This document shows positions 8,185 through 15,683 of a stretch of DNA of 64,000 nucleotides, piece by piece. The notes under the pieces are model-generated. The model was given only the letters and a program-made list of their open reading frames with translations. It searched no databases and had not been told where the DNA came from. Both the position numbers and the translations under genes were made by a program. Positions within the stretch are counted from its first letter, which is position 1; each line of letters starts with the position of its first letter. The DNA comes from Promethearchaeota archaeon (GTDB taxonomy: Archaea; Asgardarchaeota; Lokiarchaeia; Sigyniarchaeales; SOKP01): the NCBI GenBank assembly GCA_048938445.1, contig JBHLME010000002.1, positions 16,092 to 80,091 of the forward strand, written 5' to 3'.

Positions 8185-8640
8185 TTAGCTTCTATCTATA
8201 GATAGATATTTTTTTTGTCTTAAAAAGATTACACCAATTTTCGCATTTCTTGCTTTTTTACGTAAATCTTGATCATTAGATGCCAAAAATATATTCGATC
8301 TTTCTTCTTTAAGTTCAGTAGCCTTACGTAATAAAAACTCATCTGTAGTTTCTATTTGATCCTTTATAGAATCATCAATTTCAATATTATATTGATTTTT
8401 ATTTTTATCAAGATAGATAAGTCCTGACTCTAATTGTTTATAAAATTTAGTAGCTTTTGGTTCTCTCTCTTTTTTTGCTTCTAATTCATCAAAGATTTGT
8501 CTATACACAATAAATTTTGTTCTGCCTTCCAAACGTGAATTAATATTCTCAAGGTAGTTAATTTTGAATTGGAAAGGAAGAAAAATAAAATTAGAATCTA
8601 TTATAACAAGGTTTTCATAATGAATATTTTTAGGGCTCAA
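8185..8640 (-). CDS. PIN-domain ribonuclease, Fcf1/Utp24-like
   Basis: IIDSNF, IFDELE, TDEFLL, LASNDQDLRKKAR, GVIFLRQKKYL; TTG start overlaps the Rab stop. Confidence 0.8.
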   Translation of the reverse strand: MSPKNIHYENLVIIDSNFIFLPFQFKINYLENINSRLEGRTKFIVYRQIFDELEAKKEREPKATKFYKQLESGLIYLDKNKNQYNIEIDDSIKDQIETTDEFLLRKATELKEERSNIFLASNDQDLRKKARNAKIGVIFLRQKKYLSIDRS

Positions 8641-9158
8641 AAAACTTGTCGCTCTAATATTTTTTTAGTTAATTTTTCAAAAGCAAAGTTAACGTTTTCA
8701 CCAGATTTACTTGAAATTTTTATAAAATCAAATAAATTAAAAGCTTCTTGAAAAGATTGAGCATAATCATCATCAACCATTATTTCTTCTGTTAAATCTA
8801 ACTTTGTTCCAACAAATAACACTGGAAGATCAGGATCACCCTTCCGAACTATATTTATCCATTGCTCTAAATTATCTAACGTTATTGGACGAGTGAGATC
8901 AAACATTAAAAGAGCACCTTTAGCCCCCAAAACGTAGCTTTCAAGGAGGAATCTAAACCGCTCTTGACCACCAAAATCCCAAAGTTGTAGGGTTGCGGCA
9001 TTTCCATCCACTTCAGTTTCTTTTAAAAAAAACTCCACTCCAATTGTCATCTTTGTTTCTGCACTGAATTTGCCTTCAACATATCTATGCAGAAGCGTGG
9101 TTTTTCCAACGCCACCTTCCCCCGCTGTTAGAATCTTCAGTATGAACTTTTTCGGCAT
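8637..9158 (-). CDS. Rab-like small GTPase
   Basis: GEGGVGKT, TIGVEF, LQLWDFGGQERFR, GTKLD, ISSK. Confidence 0.93.
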   Translation of the reverse strand: MPKKFILKILTAGEGGVGKTTLLHRYVEGKFSAETKMTIGVEFFLKETEVDGNAATLQLWDFGGQERFRFLLESYVLGAKGALLMFDLTRPITLDNLEQWINIVRKGDPDLPVLFVGTKLDLTEEIMVDDDYAQSFQEAFNLFDFIKISSKSGENVNFAFEKLTKKILERQVF

Positions 9159-9897: not shown

Positions 9898-10434
9898 TTA
9901 CTCCGCTTTTTTTCTCTGATTAATCCTATTATGCTTTATTAGAGTTTCTCTAATCGATTTAATTTCTGCTCGTGTTTCTATATCAAAATCTTTTAAACCC
10001 TCAAGAATCTCTTTTTCATTTGAACCCATACTATAGAGTTCATTAAATTTTACTATTACCTCTTTATGATAGTAAATGTAATGTCTTTCTAGAAAAATAA
10101 TCAACCATTCTTTATTTGATTGGTACTGTGTTAAATCATACATTTTTTCTTGAATTTTTTTTAATGGCTCCTTTAATTTTCTGGCAACCATTCTATCGTC
10201 AATTTTATAATGACTTTTTAAAGTTTTATTTAATTTTTTTGTAAAAAAGAGTGAATTAATATATGAAACCAAAAATGAAAATGCCAATAATAAAATCGTA
10301 ATAACACATATCCAAATCGTTGCGACAGGATTAACATTTATGAAAAGTAGTGCTATTAACGCTATGGTTAAAAAGATTATTGTAATTATATGTTGTCTAA
10401 ATTTTTTAATGAGTATTATGTATTTTTTTGGCAT
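9898..10434 (-). CDS. Hypothetical protein with two N-terminal TM helices
   Basis: 178-aa ORF; two hydrophobic segments followed by a basic soluble domain. Confidence 0.6.
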   Translation of the reverse strand: MPKKYIILIKKFRQHIITIIFLTIALIALLFINVNPVATIWICVITILLLAFSFLVSYINSLFFTKKLNKTLKSHYKIDDRMVARKLKEPLKKIQEKMYDLTQYQSNKEWLIIFLERHYIYYHKEVIVKFNELYSMGSNEKEILEGLKDFDIETRAEIKSIRETLIKHNRINQRKKAE

Positions 10435-10520
10435 TTAATTAATCAAGTCCATTATATTTTTTTATGATTAAATGATATTAATTATTAAATAAATAAAAAT
10501 TATTAGATAAGTAAAGTTAA

Positions 10521-10716
10521 TGGTATGCGACCATCTAGCTGCACTATCTATTCTGAGTTCGGATGTTATCAGGTAGATCCTAGCTTACCATGACCGTAAA
10601 CGTATTTACAGTTTGTCATTTCCCACTGATCGCAACAGCAGTACTATTGACAACGTAAGCAAGTTTAACTTCCAGAGATATGGCGATATGCCACAGCATC
10701 ATGGTCATTAATACCA
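10521..10716 (-). other. Pre-5S processing stem with a bulge-helix-bulge-type motif
   Basis: Leader/trailer pairings UGGUAU/AUACCA, GACCAU/AUGGUC, GCUGU/GCAGC, UAUCU/AGAUA, then AAU bulge, 4-bp CUGG/UCAG helix and AAG bulge. Confidence 0.8.
10551..10669 (-). rRNA. rrf: 5S rRNA, circularly permuted gene (3' half 10669-10605, UACG linker 10604-10601, 5' half 10600-10551)
   Basis: Minus strand reads GUUAAACUUGCUUACGUUGUCAAUAGUACUGCUGUUGCGAUCAGUGGGAAAUGACAAACUGUAAA-UACG-UUUACGGUCAUGGUAAGCUAGGAUCUACCUGAUAACAUCCGAACUCAGAA. All five 5S helices pair, with loop C CCGAAC and loop E AGUA/GAA; length 119 nt. Confidence 0.9.
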
Positions 10717-10879
10717 ATTCAAATCCGTTCATAAGATCGGTAATTTGAAATTCGAATTCCTACTTATGTGGATAAATTATAATAACTCTAATTATTTTTA
10801 ATAATTAAATTTTATTATATTTATTCGTCTCGTGAAGTAAACCGTTAAATTTAAATAATATTCAAGTGAATCATTAAGA

Positions 10880-11434
10880 ATGATCTTTCAGATATTGCTA
10901 CGTAATGTACCAGACTTTCAATATATAATCAATGCTATAATTGCAATACTAGGAAGATCATTAGATATAATTAGCACGAGATATGTTTCAAAAGAATTAA
11001 AATTAGAAACAAATAAATTTGCAAGACGTCTTGGATGGCCAGGAGCAATTTTGATTCAGATACCTTTAATCATATTAGGATCACTTGATTTTTATTTAGC
11101 CTTGTTTTTATTCGTTTGGAGTTTCTATCTTTTTGCCAATAACTTAGAGGGAAGTTGGTATGTAAAACAAGTGGGAGAAGAGCAATATAAGAATGAATTG
11201 AAAGATCAATTAAATCAATCAAAAACACTAAAAATAATTTTAGGTGAAATTTCCTCTCTATTAACTTATACCATCTCAGGTATATTAATATTAATCTTTA
11301 TCTTTGTTTTTAATGATTTTATTGGTGTTGTTTTCATATGTAGTGCATTAATTTTTCAAGGAATAGTAGGAACGATTAGATCAATAAAATATCTCTTTGA
11401 ATTAAAAAAAGAAAAAACTTTAGAAGAAAATTAA
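10880..11434 (+). CDS. Hypothetical integral membrane protein
   Basis: 4-5 hydrophobic segments; LDIISTRY...LETN motif. Confidence 0.6.
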   Translation: MIFQILLRNVPDFQYIINAIIAILGRSLDIISTRYVSKELKLETNKFARRLGWPGAILIQIPLIILGSLDFYLALFLFVWSFYLFANNLEGSWYVKQVGEEQYKNELKDQLNQSKTLKIILGEISSLLTYTISGILILIFIFVFNDFIGVVFICSALIFQGIVGTIRSIKYLFELKKEKTLEEN

Positions 11435-11449
11435 TAAAAAAATAAAAGA

Positions 11450-13624
11450 TCATTCTTTTAATCTTTTCAAATTACTAGAATGTTGATTGATACCTCTAAT
11501 AACTATCACTATAGAAAGACCTGTTATAAATGATATAAGAATAGTACCGCCTATCAAGACAATGTAAGTCGAAGGAATAGGGATGAGGAATTCAAATGTC
11601 TGCGAATAAAATTGCGTGTTGTTGGCATAATCTCTAGTGATGATTGTAAATTCATAGAAGCCCGGCATCATTTTATTCAATAAGACTTGCAGCAAGGTGT
11701 TGTTTTCATACAATGTATTTCTTGATATATCATAGGTGTAGGTTCCACTTATTTTATCTTGAATTAAAACAATGGCACTTTCAATTCCCGAGCGGTTATC
11801 TGAGGCAAAAATATCGAAACAAATGTTGTCTAAAGTCGTGGGATTAATTTTATCACAAAACACGCTTGAAATAACGGGCTTGATATTGTCTTCTTTGGTC
11901 GTGAAGTTAAAATGGGAAGGAATTAAATTATGACCTGTAATCGTCACGTTATATTTTTCATTGGCGTTCGGATAGACGCGAAATTTTGCTATGCCATTTA
12001 TATCCGCGTATACAGTGTTATATTTCCCATCTTCCGTCGTTAGATGGATTCTCGCATGAGGAACTATATTGTTTCGTGTATCTCTGATGGTTATTGAGAC
12101 TAACTGACCTTCATAAATGTCCCCTGTAAATGGATTTGAAGCATTTACGGGTTTGTTCGTGTAGATGTCAACTTCGGGATCACCTAAAAGGCAATAGGTC
12201 AAGACATTCTTTCTTTGATATCCTAAACTCATCGATGATATTGTCTGGGCAAAGATATCGGAATTTACGTAATCTAGTTTGGAATCATACAGGGTTTTAC
12301 CTTGTTGGTAAATTTTATCTTCAAAAAATTTCTCCCAGAATAATTTCGCATTAGCTCTATTTAAAAATTCGAAATCAAAATCATCTACAATATACCATGT
12401 AACGCGTAATGCCCCAATATAACCAATAGCACCAGAGTTAGTCGCTTTGATTAATATTTCTCCTATGTTCTGATCAGTATCATCATAAGCTGAAGTTGTA
12501 CAAGCATCAGCATAGATCAATGAAGGCATATCAGCATTAGAACTAGATGATGCTTGAGTATCTGTGTATATACTAAAACCTACACCACGGCTACTATATA
12601 ATCCAGTATCACCATGACCCGCAAACATGATCGTTGAGTAACCACTGTTAAATTCATTGTTAAATTCAGAAGCATCACTAATTTCGTCTACAGTATCTGA
12701 TGGATCTACTGAAGTATTCACTGAAAAATAAGTTGATCTATATAAATGAGTAAAATTCATTTCAGGTTCGACATAATTTTTCCAGATATATTCTGTCAAA
12801 CGAGCCTCATCTTCACCATCGGGACTTGCTTCAATAACAGTATCTGAGATTACTCCTGCTAATAACATGTTATTCATCCAATCATCAATATATGGATCTG
12901 ACTCGTATTTTATGGTCTTATTGACCATCTGTTGTAATTCGATATAATTGCTAGCTGGCAAGCGTCCAACATACACTTCAGGGATCCAATTAATTTCATC
13001 TATTCCAAATGCATTATATATTGGTGATTCACCAAAATTATTGTCATTATCATCATCCCACGTGCCCGTCAAGTCGGCATAATAAAAATCCGTAGGTTTG
13101 TAAACCCTATCACCATGTTCTGGGTGAGGTCCGTTAGGAGCATCGTCAACATCTGGATTATAAACATATCTTATTGGAATGAGACTATTTTCTGCATCTC
13201 CCACTAATAAGACCCATCGAATCCCTTCTTTTTCATAGTATTCCTTTATCATGTTTCGAATTCGTTCTGGATCGTCTCTCCCAGGGTATGATGAGAAATT
13301 GCTCAATATGATGGTCTTAACTCCTTTTTGGTTCTTCCAGTCCCGTAATGGAATGGTTGCATTGATAAAATTCTCATCATCGGGAGTTATGATTATCATT
13401 TCAACATCATGGTCATACCAAGTTTCATTTAAATCAGTAAAATTAAATTCAGGTATTAATGACGGATTTAAATCAGAAATGTAACCTGATGTTTTTAATA
13501 TTTCAGAATTATTAAAGTTCTTAAAAGTTATTGCGTTAAGGTTTATGATTAAAATATAAGTTGGGAAAACAAGGAAAATAATAAATGAGAGATATATAAT
13601 TCTTTTTAAGAGAAGCGACTTCAT
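11450..13624 (-). CDS. Peptidase C25 (gingipain-like) cysteine protease, membrane anchored
   Basis: WKNQKG, WVLLVGD, TDFYYADL, EVYVGRLP, FAGHG (His), ADAC (Cys), LLGDP; N-terminal signal/TM and C-terminal TM. Confidence 0.9.
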   Translation of the reverse strand: MKSLLLKRIIYLSFIIFLVFPTYILIINLNAITFKNFNNSEILKTSGYISDLNPSLIPEFNFTDLNETWYDHDVEMIIITPDDENFINATIPLRDWKNQKGVKTIILSNFSSYPGRDDPERIRNMIKEYYEKEGIRWVLLVGDAENSLIPIRYVYNPDVDDAPNGPHPEHGDRVYKPTDFYYADLTGTWDDDNDNNFGESPIYNAFGIDEINWIPEVYVGRLPASNYIELQQMVNKTIKYESDPYIDDWMNNMLLAGVISDTVIEASPDGEDEARLTEYIWKNYVEPEMNFTHLYRSTYFSVNTSVDPSDTVDEISDASEFNNEFNSGYSTIMFAGHGDTGLYSSRGVGFSIYTDTQASSSSNADMPSLIYADACTTSAYDDTDQNIGEILIKATNSGAIGYIGALRVTWYIVDDFDFEFLNRANAKLFWEKFFEDKIYQQGKTLYDSKLDYVNSDIFAQTISSMSLGYQRKNVLTYCLLGDPEVDIYTNKPVNASNPFTGDIYEGQLVSITIRDTRNNIVPHARIHLTTEDGKYNTVYADINGIAKFRVYPNANEKYNVTITGHNLIPSHFNFTTKEDNIKPVISSVFCDKINPTTLDNICFDIFASDNRSGIESAIVLIQDKISGTYTYDISRNTLYENNTLLQVLLNKMMPGFYEFTIITRDYANNTQFYSQTFEFLIPIPSTYIVLIGGTILISFITGLSIVIVIRGINQHSSNLKRLKE

Positions 13625-14087: not shown

Positions 14088-15683
14088 ATGAAACATAATT
14101 TAGAAGACGTTACTGGTATTGGAAAAGCAACAGCCGAGCGGTTAAAAAAAGCTGGTATTAATTCTGTTGAAAAGTTAGTATCAATAGAATTAGATCAATT
14201 ATTACAAGTAAAAGGTATTGGAGAGTCTACAGCGAAAAGTCTTAAGGAAAAAGCTGAAAATTATTTAAAAGGATTAAGTGAACCTGCTTCTGAAGGTGGT
14301 TCAATTAGCAAACCAAAGGTCGAAAAGCAGAAAGCTACCCTTATAAAAGAAGAAAAAGAAGTTGTTGAAAAAGACCAAGTAAAAAAGGGAGGTGCTGCAA
14401 TTATTAAAGGTTCAACTAAAAAAATAGTTCAGAAACAAGCAGAATGCAATATTGGATTAGTGGGACATGTAGATCATGGAAAAACAACCTTGGTGAAGGC
14501 ATTAACAGGAGATTGGACAGATAGACACTCTGAGGAGCAAGAACGTGGAATATCTATAAAATTAGGATATTCAAACGCAACGATATTATATTGTCCCGAA
14601 TGTGATAGCTACATGACAGCATATATGGTTGAAAAAGAAAGGAATAAGGGTCAACCCAAATATAATTGTCCCATGTGTAAAAAAAATTTGGAATTTAAGC
14701 GAAATATTTCATTTGTAGACGCTCCAGGTCATGAGATATTAATGGCTACCATGTTAAGTGGAGCTTCATTGATGGATGGAGCTTGTTTATTAATTGCCGC
14801 AGATGAAAAATGCCCACAACCTCAAACCAGAGAACATTTAGCAGCTTTAAATATAGCTGGAATTCAAAACATCATTATCATACAAAATAAAATTGACGCC
14901 GTTTCAAAAGAACAAGCATTAGAGAACTATAATCAAATTAAAAAATTTGTTAAAGGAACTGTGGCAGAAAATGCACCAGTTATCCCTATTTCAGCAGTTT
15001 TTAGTGCTAACTTGGATCTAATTGTAAGAGGTTTTGAAGAAATCATAGCGTCTCCTGAATTAAATGAAAATGATGATTTTGAATTTTTAATTGCACGATC
15101 TTTCGATATTAATCGTCCTGGAAAAAAAATTGATGAATTAAAAGGTGGAGTTATTGGAGGTTCAGTTTTAAAGGGGAAAGTTAAAATTGGAGACCAAATC
15201 GAAATTAAACCCGGACTTCACATCAAAAATGAGTATAAACCTATAAATTCAACTGTAGTAAGTATTAATCAAGGAAATATTCAATTAACAGAAGCAAAAC
15301 CTGGTGGACTTATCGGTCTGGGTACACTTCTTGATCCCACTTTAACAAAGGGAGATTCTTTGATTGGTCACTTAGTCGGAAAAGTTGGAACGCTTCCAAA
15401 TATAATTTCAGAAATTGAACTGGAAGTTAATTTACTTGATCGTGTCGTAGGTTCAGAAAATCAAATAAAAATTTATGATCTTAAACATAATGAAAAATTA
15501 CTATTAGTTGTTGGTACAGAAAAAACAGCAGGAACAGTAACCAAGATATTAAAGAATTCATATATCCTAAAATTAAATCCACCAATTTGTCCCGCAGAGA
15601 ATTTCATTTTTGCAATCTCTCGAATCATTAATCGTCGTTATCGTTTAATAGGTTATGGTATAAGAGTTAATCATGAAAGGTAG
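14088..15683 (+). CDS. eif2g: Translation initiation factor aIF-2 gamma with an N-terminal helix-hairpin-helix domain
   Basis: NIGLVGHVDHGKTT, RGISIKLGY, Zn knuckle, DAPGHE, PQPQTREH, NKID, RSFDINRPG, RLIGYG; N-terminal VTGIGKATAERL...VKGIGESTA. Confidence 0.95.
   Translation: MKHNLEDVTGIGKATAERLKKAGINSVEKLVSIELDQLLQVKGIGESTAKSLKEKAENYLKGLSEPASEGGSISKPKVEKQKATLIKEEKEVVEKDQVKKGGAAIIKGSTKKIVQKQAECNIGLVGHVDHGKTTLVKALTGDWTDRHSEEQERGISIKLGYSNATILYCPECDSYMTAYMVEKERNKGQPKYNCPMCKKNLEFKRNISFVDAPGHEILMATMLSGASLMDGACLLIAADEKCPQPQTREHLAALNIAGIQNIIIIQNKIDAVSKEQALENYNQIKKFVKGTVAENAPVIPISAVFSANLDLIVRGFEEIIASPELNENDDFEFLIARSFDINRPGKKIDELKGGVIGGSVLKGKVKIGDQIEIKPGLHIKNEYKPINSTVVSINQGNIQLTEAKPGGLIGLGTLLDPTLTKGDSLIGHLVGKVGTLPNIISEIELEVNLLDRVVGSENQIKIYDLKHNEKLLLVVGTEKTAGTVTKILKNSYILKLNPPICPAENFIFAISRIINRRYRLIGYGIRVNHER

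Follow-up and report, generated by a model that had tools for sequence, protein, structure and literature searches.

To our knowledge, 5S rRNA is taken to be linear and free-ended in all cellular ribosomes, and the Rfam model RF00001 describes a molecule with free 5' and 3' ends at helix I. In the window, the whole 64-kb stretch of archaeal DNA analysed here, positions 10612–10593 of the minus strand read ACUGUAAA-UACG-UUUACGGU, the helix I sequence of a 5S rRNA gene whose order is circularly permuted. In place of free ends, helix I is closed by UACG, both in this DNA and in an RNA-derived contig from a relative. The locus raises the question of whether the 5S rRNA encoded here has any ends, how a circle would be closed, and whether the circle is the form that works in the ribosome.

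Gene order and genomic setting

A circularly permuted 5S rRNA gene occupies the locus, standing alone on the minus strand. At a permissive threshold two partial matches to RF00001 are found, and their order shows that the 3' part of the gene precedes the 5' part:

10712–10603, minus strand: partial RF00001 match, 15.9 bits, covering the gamma domain and the 3' strand of helix I
10601–10515, minus strand: partial RF00001 match, 19.3 bits, covering the 5' strand of helix I and the beta domain

The curated gathering score of this model is 38 bits, and across the 64-kb window no Rfam match reaches the gathering score. The RF00001 score is missed because of the rotated order, each half fitting its own part of the model. 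This weak permuted locus is the sole 5S candidate in the whole genome assembly, which is 96.5% complete. It lies within a 445-nt gap between open reading frames (9898–10434, minus strand, and 10880–11434, plus strand), and a tRNA scan of the 64-kb window returned no hits. The window is A+T-rich, with about 30% G+C, and encodes aIF2-gamma and a Ras-family small GTPase, a combination consistent with an archaeon of Asgard type.

Along the gene, the 3' strand of helix II comes first, followed by the gamma domain, the 3' strand of helix I and the UACG cap; the 5' strands of helix I and helix II follow, and helix III with loop C ends the series. Two elements read from the flanking sequence may delimit the unit:

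10728–10735, minus strand: TATA-like box CUUAUGAA, putative promoter of the 5S unit
10495–10499, minus strand: run of five U, likely terminator

Archaeal transcription usually terminates at oligo-U, and the precursor would begin near 10707 and end near 10495. The TATA-like box begins 66 nt upstream of G10669, the predicted first base of the mature RNA. A YUUAWDWA motif is present upstream in 26 of 46 related loci, where its distance to the cleavage site clusters at 66–68 nt (19 occurrences) and at 85–86 nt (8 occurrences).

Fold and covariation

Read in rotated order, the locus supplies the following parts of a 5S rRNA:

10605–10612, minus strand: helix I, 3' strand (ACUGUAAA)
10601–10604, minus strand: UACG tetraloop capping helix I, unchanged in the relative's RNA contig
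10593–10600, minus strand: helix I, 5' strand (UUUACGGU)
10655–10663, minus strand: helix II, 3' strand (CUUGCUUAC), pairing with 10580–10588
10580–10588, minus strand: helix II, 5' strand (GUAAGCUAG), pairing with 10655–10663
10615–10651, minus strand: gamma domain (helix V, loop E, helix IV, loop D), placed by the weak RF00001 match, covariation and the circular fold
10553–10573, minus strand: helix III with loop C (CCUGA-UAACAUCCGAAC-UCAG), whose 3' strand UCAG doubles as strand H of the bulge-helix-bulge

The capped helix I is an 8-bp stem that includes one G-U pair and carries the 4-nt UACG loop on an A-U closing pair. A sequence-only reading of this DNA had described just such a capped helix, with a four-nucleotide linker and an A-U closing pair, and the minus-strand sequence from 10612 to 10593 bears it out. 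On its own, this hairpin is not beyond chance, as hairpins with an 8-bp stem and a 4-nt loop number 90 across the two strands of the window, against a mean of 80.5 in 20 shuffles; two of the 90 have UNCG loops, compared with 0.65 in the shuffles. The case for the capped helix is made by its context and its conservation.

Conservation was assessed in an alignment (A1) of 27 cores, comprising 23 loci of the window's family and four from three other families, on which the 5S fold was imposed in rotated order, with slid partners and shuffles as controls. Across the whole structure 88.9% of cells form standard pairs, against 35.8–45.0% when partners are slid. Changes on both sides of a pair occur in 161 cells, against a shuffle mean of 50.2, and none of 500 shuffles reaches this number, although the rows of A1, like the other related genomes, are kin, and both the covariation figures and the counts overstate independence. 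Helix I is paired in 92.6% of cells and five of its eight pairs are changed on both sides, with the three pairs adjacent to the loop varying most (AU/GC/GU/UA/CG). Double-sided changes also affect seven of the nine pairs of helix II, all four of helix V and four of the six of helix IV.

The characteristic elements of 5S rRNA are all present, including the three-way junction, helices I to V, loop C with ..CAUCCGAAC.. and loop E with AGUAC/GGGAA. Folded as a circle from 10669 to 10551, the sequence adopts the textbook 5S structure as its minimum free-energy form, with all five helices and a 12-nt loop C; the energy itself is no better than that of shuffled circles (z -0.46). R1, a covariance model of the rotated 5S core, scores the core of the window's predicted mature 5S at 104.5 bits.

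Distribution of the permuted gene

The permuted form is the rule in the window's family and is also found in many other families of the phylum. A DNA search across the cap gave matches in 30 of 36 other genomes of the family and in none of 24 genomes of other families. With model R1, one full-length permuted copy (86–112 bits) is recovered from 113 of 126 genomes of the window's family. Matches extend to the other families of the class, in every genome of f3 (1/1), f4 (3/3), f5 (2/2), f6 (3/3) and f7 (2/2). The exception is f2, in which three of 13 genomes give R1 scores of only 32–35 bits, on ordinary genes. Canonical 5S genes (50–69 bits) are present in 12 of 14 f2 genomes, and no other genome of that sample passes the Rfam cut-off; among 36 genomes of the window's family, the number passing is zero.

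In a sample of 151 genomes from the whole phylum, the permuted and canonical states are mutually exclusive by family. R1 matches are found in f1 (24/25), f8 (4/4), f13 (4/5), f24 (5/6), f27 (6/7), f18 (3/3), f26 (2/3), f20 (2/4) and others. RF00001 matches above the cut-off belong to f12 (25/26), f17 (17/19), f21 (3/5), f15, f31 and f2 (1/2). Family f30 is ambiguous, and neither model matches 12 of 13 genomes of f10, all seven of f25 and all four of f19. Closed one-contig genomes from other families (G153, G187, G163 and G173) carry the permuted gene and no canonical 5S. All 15 loci fetched from outside the window's family match R1 (36.8–73.9 bits), with a capped helix I in each of the 10 alignments shown. 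A further permuted gene belongs to a Candidatus Jordarchaeia archaeon (locus L136, 59.3 bits with R1). It was the only real gene among 80 listed matches of a loose IUPAC scan, which returned at least 120 stretches, mostly bacterial chance matches, and is uninformative outside the phylum.

Metagenome DNA offers an independent view of the same arrangement. A pattern running from the cap to loop C, without the joint of the predicted circle, matches 61 contigs, of which 59 are permuted genes with a trailer and two are ordinary 5S genes matched by chance. Of the permuted genes, 41 are distinct and evaluable, seven are duplicates, five are cut by contig ends and six contain an insertion missed by the anchor.

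These counts bear on the simplest dismissal of the locus, namely that it represents a pseudogene that has decayed or been rearranged, or else an artefact of assembly, the working 5S gene being absent from the sequence assembled. Genomes assembled from metagenomes do often lack rRNA genes, and the Rfam scores of the window locus lie far under the cut-off. Neither decay nor misassembly fits a gene that is present in one copy in each of those 113 genomes at 86–112 bits, in closed genomes without a canonical 5S and on 59 metagenome contigs, with compensatory changes throughout its fold. On these grounds the pseudogene or artefact reading was rejected, and its probability is negligible.

A bulge-helix-bulge at the new ends

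The new ends of the gene lie in helix III of the beta domain, and the sequences around them can be paired as follows, a slash marking each predicted cut:

10701–10707, minus strand: leader, 5' strand of the outer processing stem (UGACCAU), 7 bp with 10528–10534
10528–10534, minus strand: trailer, 3' strand of the outer processing stem (AUGGUCG), pairing with 10701–10707
10681–10693, minus strand: predicted leader hairpin (UGGC-AUAUC-GCCA) between the outer stem and the bulge-helix-bulge
10676–10680, minus strand: outer helix h of the bulge-helix-bulge, leader strand (UAUCU), 5 bp with AGAUA at 10545–10549
10545–10549, minus strand: outer helix h, trailer strand (AGAUA), pairing with 10676–10680
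10672–10675, minus strand: central 4-bp helix H, leader strand (CUGG), pairing at four of four positions with UCAG at 10553–10556
10669–10671, minus strand: leader bulge AA/G, predicted 5' cleavage site, G10669 being the first mature base
10550–10552, minus strand: trailer bulge AA/U, predicted 3' cleavage site, A10551 being the last mature base
10551–10669, minus strand: predicted mature 5S rRNA of 119 nt, a circle closed through A10551–G10669

The predicted cleavage places follow the canonical rule for the archaeal splicing endonuclease, and the sequence of the product is unchanged whether the cut follows the first or the second bulge base. In the proposed pathway, leader and trailer would pair through the outer stem and a relaxed bulge-helix-bulge (BHB) made of h, the 4-bp H and the 3-nt bulges. 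Cleavage in both bulges would be followed by ligation, in which RtcB would join A10551 to G10669. This join gives ..CCGAACUCAGAA + GUUAAAC.., the ordinary run of the helix III 3' strand and loop B, which the joint would thus restore. The product would be a covalently closed 5S rRNA of 119 nt, endless, with helix I kept shut by its tetraloop. On the predicted pairing, closure of the circle is explained by this BHB; the sequence-only reading had named no means of closing it. The locus combines the features of a permuted BHB gene: the 3' part stands upstream, a 4-bp helix separates two 3-nt bulges, and both EndA and RtcB are encoded in the genome.

The same design recurs in relatives. Their leaders run from an outer stem through a small hairpin, h and H (CUGG or CCGG) to AA/G and UUAAAC, and their trailers from ..CCGAAC through H (CCAG, CCGG or UCAG) and a 3-nt bulge to the partner of h and the outer stem. 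With cleavage places fixed by homology across 46 distinct loci of the family, 44 have H paired at four of four positions together with an h of at least 3 bp, whereas none of the 46 does so at any slide from -3 to +3. The two exceptions are L003, in which h is interrupted, and L064, in which H is paired at three of four positions. In the independent metagenome set, 39 of 41 loci conform, and none when slid. The sequence of h differs among loci yet remains paired (GCG/CGC, AACA/UGUU, UAUCU/AGAUA, CACUAAA/UUUAGUG, GUCGUG/CGCGAC). The second position of H covaries in the 46 loci, a hand tally giving U-A in 15, C-G in 18, U-G in 12 and C-A in none, the mismatch of L064 lying elsewhere in H. The predicted circles measure 119–122 nt in 35 of the 46 loci.

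Of the 46 related loci, 43 have an outer stem of at least 8 bp, but so do 23 when their trailers are shuffled, which makes this a weak control. Judged by eye, the leader hairpin of relatives occupies the same place with other sequences (GUAGC..GCUAC, AUAGC..GCUAU, GUGC..GCAC). Free-energy folding places H in the minimum free-energy structure of only 11 of 46 precursors, and the window's precursor folds without it. Enforcing the BHB costs a median of 2.5 kcal/mol, and 0.6 kcal/mol for the window. Such folding disfavours the BHB because H competes with the native helix III, and energy calculations by themselves would thus have missed the motif.

The BHB is of the relaxed hBH form, with the outer helix h only and no inner helix h', and for this reason it would need an enzyme of broad specificity. 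The genome encodes one RtcB (563.7 bits) and two EndA paralogues, one in a frame of 208 amino acids (107.4 bits) and the other in a frame of 211 (69.7 bits). In every archaeal case known to us, the products of EndA are substrates of RtcB. Judging from these genes and the predicted pairing, EndA and RtcB would be the enzymes that process the window's 5S precursor. Asgard archaea are described as having an (alpha-beta)2 EndA with an L1 loop, which that account ties to broad specificity and relaxed motifs (PMC5829648).

A break point that wanders among relatives

The place at which the gene is broken is not the same in all loci. The break follows helix III on its 3' side in 36 loci (type A). In 10 others (type B) it separates the 5' strand of helix III from loop C, and a single genome from another family is broken 5' of helix III. 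The sequence that joining would create is constant. The predicted type B joint (..CCGG-UC + C-CAUCCGAAC) is identical to the contiguous DNA of type A genes, and the predicted type A joint reproduces in turn what type B genes, like the canonical genes in a sister family, carry as contiguous DNA. Both types occur within single genera, namely g1, which includes the window's genus-mate G005, g2 and g11. A break that shifts among close relatives while the joined sequence stays constant fits a break that is erased by ligation.

This observation weighs on the idea that the mature RNA is a linear, permuted 5S rRNA, cut at the BHB or trimmed, left unligated and carrying a nick in its beta domain. Base pairing in helix III could keep a nicked 5S together, and linear permuted 5S rRNAs are described from brown-algal mitochondria (PMC4267664). 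The nick would, however, differ in place among close relatives and would even fall inside loop C in type B loci; such wandering seems hard to reconcile with a nick that persists in a working RNA. An unligated form also sits poorly with an encoded RtcB and with EndA products being, as noted above, what RtcB acts on. Together with the RNA contig considered next, which crosses the break places of both type A and type B, these points make an unligated 5S quite unlikely.

A circular path in RNA from a relative

Twenty public runs contain the stretch, and one of them, X20, is RNA, a metatranscriptome available as contigs. One of its contigs, of 151 letters (depth 3.7), covers 10598–10672 of the window, continues with a 33-letter stretch that reads as helix II/III and loop C, in the beta domain, of a relative, and then covers 10585–10627. 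Its opening 30 letters align to the same place in the window as its closing 30, and 151 equals 121 plus 30; read from this layout, such an overlap signals a circular path in a 31-mer graph. The contig holds the unchanged cap and the joint ..CCGAACCCA + GAAGUUAAAC.., and neither leader nor trailer interrupts it at the type A or the type B break. It represents a relative of the window, with five differing letters in addition to the diverged 33-letter stretch. It is a single assembled contig from one run, and as such it comes from a process that is blind to ends and abundance, and from a library type that can hold DNA.

DNA provides the corresponding control. The cap-plus-joint pattern occurs in none of the metagenome DNA contigs. 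Likewise, runs X1 and X3, which are probably DNA, and X19, whose kind is unrecorded, have no contig with the joint; their loose ends are unjoined leaders.

The sequence-only reading had proposed that the mature 5S rRNA may stay an endless circle and had named read coverage continuing across the cap as a check. The relative's RNA-derived contig, which reads straight through the cap and rounds a circle of 121 nt, supports this proposal in part. The permuted gene, its 5S fold, the BHB and a circular RNA in a relative are well supported and together considered highly probable.

The cap and the mature form

UNCG loops form a stable tetraloop family, and a C-G closing pair gives its most stable form. 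The window's cap has the U-N-C-G sequence but not the C-G closing pair, which is replaced by A-U. G+C-rich lineages have C-G or G-C as the closing pair, as in C-UACG-G and C-UUCG-G. The position of the cap is invariant among the loci, and its sequence is UNCG in 35 of 56 loci from several classes (UUCG in 31, UACG in three, UCCG in one), after five false hairpins located elsewhere in the loci had been excluded from an initial 61 and L058 had been corrected by eye. The remaining 21 loci have UUUG (eight), UUAG (three), five forms found once each, three loops of other sizes and two long insertions. In the permuted metagenome loci the cap is UNCG in 51 of 59.

The two long insertions, of about 30 nt at the tip of helix I in L010 and L026, lengthen helix I by a further hairpin rather than opening it, and that of L010 has a UUCG loop of its own. 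A search by hand found no BHB around either of them, and they are read as helix extensions.

A circle may nevertheless be an intermediate, which a nuclease opens at or near the tetraloop to give a linear 5S rRNA with normal ends at helix I. Precedents for re-opening exist, as permuted tRNA precursors are described as being cut and religated into the normal order (PMC4267664), and re-linearisation is the accepted view of circular 16S and 23S precursors in the account of PMC12918454. The X20 contig is as compatible with an intermediate as with an end product. The cap, on the other hand, is hardly built for removal: there is no spacer, just a 4-nt loop set directly on an 8-bp helix, and UNCG in 35 of 56 and 51 of 59 loci is unexpected for a disposable linker. 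In addition, two relatives extend the helix by another closed hairpin where an opening would be required. We know of no archaeal activity that trims a tetraloop. Re-opening is therefore considered unlikely.

The best explanation of the locus is an endless 5S circle, processed at a BHB, with the circle itself as the ribosomal form; its probability is put at roughly two in three. The conserved and stable cap, the lack of a spacer, the extensions of helix I and the wandering break all point to the circle as the form used by the ribosome. We infer on this basis that the window's organism produces the circle and that its ribosomes contain it closed rather than re-opened, although a later cut at any point of the circle may occur. 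The view of the cap as permanent rather than as a spacer to be removed, also put forward in the sequence-only reading, gains support from the fixed position, the covarying stem, the UNCG majority, the helix I extensions and the read-through in the relative's RNA. The alternatives allowed there, re-opening at the loop and an unligated linear form, have become less likely.

Relation to known systems and implications

The closest precedent is the SRP RNA of Thermoproteus tenax, a universal structured RNA with a permuted gene, whose circular product is described as the functional end product (Plagens et al. 2015, eLife, PMC4731332). The present case differs in that the RNA is 5S rRNA, a component of the ribosome, and in that the break lies in helix III or loop C. 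It is also spread over many families of a phylum rather than the few species of the Thermoproteus account, while function and enzyme action are here deduced from sequence.

Permuted tRNA genes, described from Cyanidioschyzon merolae and some archaea, resemble the 5S locus in that the 3' half comes first, leader and trailer form a BHB, and a circle arises through endonuclease and ligase (PMC4267664, PMC5829648). In the tRNA case the circle contains a spacer and is opened to a linear tRNA, whereas in the permuted 5S the natural ends are fused by a 4-nt tetraloop. Circular 16S and 23S precursors are likewise reported to have a BHB in the processing stem and to be circularised by EndA and RtcB (PMC12918454), and a circular 23S rRNA has been claimed to exist within archaeal ribosomes (PMC12918454; bioRxiv 10.1101/2025.04.27.650855). 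As described in these sources, the 16S and 23S genes are unpermuted and their joint lies at the natural ends, unlike the permuted 5S. Archaeal 5S rRNA is said in the same account not to be processed by circularisation (PMC12918454).

Brown-algal mitochondrial 5S rRNA shares the closed hairpin at helix I, and both its gene and its RNA are permuted (Valach et al. 2014, PMC4267664). That mtPerm-5S is organellar, has its ends at the alpha/gamma junction and is described there as a linear product without BHB or ligation (PMC4267664); in the window it is the beta domain that is broken, with a BHB flanking the break. Minor circles containing 5S sequence have been described in Sulfolobus and Halobacterium (PMC12558985), where they are reported to come from canonical genes, to have variable joints and to be thought linked to degradation. 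Unlike these minor circles, the circle predicted for the window is the sole route to an intact beta domain. In the largely open-access literature searched, no permuted or obligately circular archaeal 5S rRNA was found.

The importance of the arrangement lies in its logic, as a permuted gene cannot yield an intact 5S unless it is ligated, and the ligated product is endless. If confirmed, this 5S rRNA would be the second universal RNA, after the Thermoproteus SRP RNA, to work as a circle made by tRNA splicing, and the first small rRNA of this kind. A circular 5S would then also be the normal state across much of the archaeal phylum closest to eukaryotes.

A broader scheme can be offered tentatively, at somewhat less than even odds. 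Most Asgard lineages may use an endless 5S rRNA made by the tRNA-splicing machinery, with the permuted gene arising at or near the base of the phylum. On this view, the ordinary linear 5S genes of some families, one of which also includes one-contig genomes of 4.4 and 6.0 Mb, would be secondary reversions, possibly by re-copying from an opened circle. The beta domain would be a hot spot for BHB motifs, with a sliding break and with introns in loop C and helix IV. Such a sliding break, together with the extra BHB introns, would form a natural series for the origin of split and permuted RNA genes. The arrangement has a practical consequence too, since standard 5S models miss permuted genes and such genomes will consequently be reported without a 5S rRNA; the permuted model R1 recovers the genes that these models overlook.

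Distribution of ordinary and permuted 5S genes

The permuted form of the 5S gene, in which the gene order is rotated and helix I is capped by a tetraloop, is found in all families of the class other than the sister family f2. f2, by contrast, has ordinary linear 5S genes (loci L033 and L035, genomes G055 and G044), in up to three copies spaced approximately 375 nt apart; among the genomes of this family are some in a single contig, of 4.4 and 6.0 Mb. The coexistence of ordinary genes in f2 and permuted genes in the rest of the class makes the ancestral state a question. In the phylum-wide sample of 151 genomes, most members of families f10, f25, f19 and f22 matched neither the canonical 5S model (RF00001) nor R1, the covariance model of the rotated core, and these families may have yet another 5S arrangement.

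Inserts in permuted 5S genes

In nine relatives (L007, L009, L011, L015, L016, L026, L062, L068 and L090), the permuted 5S gene has an insert of roughly 30 nt within loop C (..CAUCCGAA / insert / C-CCGG-AA..); the 5S gene of the window itself lacks it. The insert is flanked by a bulge-helix-bulge (BHB)-like motif of its own, with UCCG/CGGG as the 4-bp central helix, and its inner helix keeps its pairing despite sequence change (AACCA/UGGUU versus AAUCAUC/GAUGGUU). If the insert were excised, loop C would be whole again, and a micro-exon of 7 nt would remain ahead of the trailer cut, the predicted 3' cleavage site. The predicted circles at these nine loci measure 150-151 nt because the insert is still counted in. 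In L063 (G131) the loop C insert repeats the preceding GGAUAAUACCCGGUCCC, and it resembles a duplication of local sequence more than the insert usual at this place.

A second insert, also of about 30 nt, was recognized by eye within helix IV/loop D of five relatives (L031, L247, L260, L263 and L265). It carries a palindromic UGCA at either side and an inner hairpin, and on this visual inspection it resembles a BHB intron of the relaxed (HBh') type.

Helix I is itself lengthened in L010 and L026 (genus g6) by an extra hairpin of about 30 nt immediately 5' of the old tetraloop, which in L010 has a UUCG loop of its own. Inspection by hand found no BHB at either hairpin insertion. Within the window organism's own family, 19 R1 matches are 131-133 nt long and, by length alone, therefore appear to carry some such insert.

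Protein-coding genes in the window

Protein genes and their domain matches
8185-9158, minus strand: Ras-family small GTPase (143.4 bits), then PIN-like domain protein (PIN_9, 42.4 bits)
11450-13624, minus strand: protein of 724 aa that matches Peptidase_C25 (gingipain-type domain, 193.5 bits)
14088-15683, plus strand: aIF2-gamma homologue whose GTPase domain is preceded by about 115 additional N-terminal residues

The GTPase and PIN-like genes overlap by 4 bases, with the GTPase first. The Peptidase_C25 gene, whose product has a membrane anchor at the C-terminal end, is located a short distance upstream of the 5S unit. The N-terminal addition of the aIF2-gamma homologue contains a helix-hairpin-helix domain (HHH_5, 50.7 bits).
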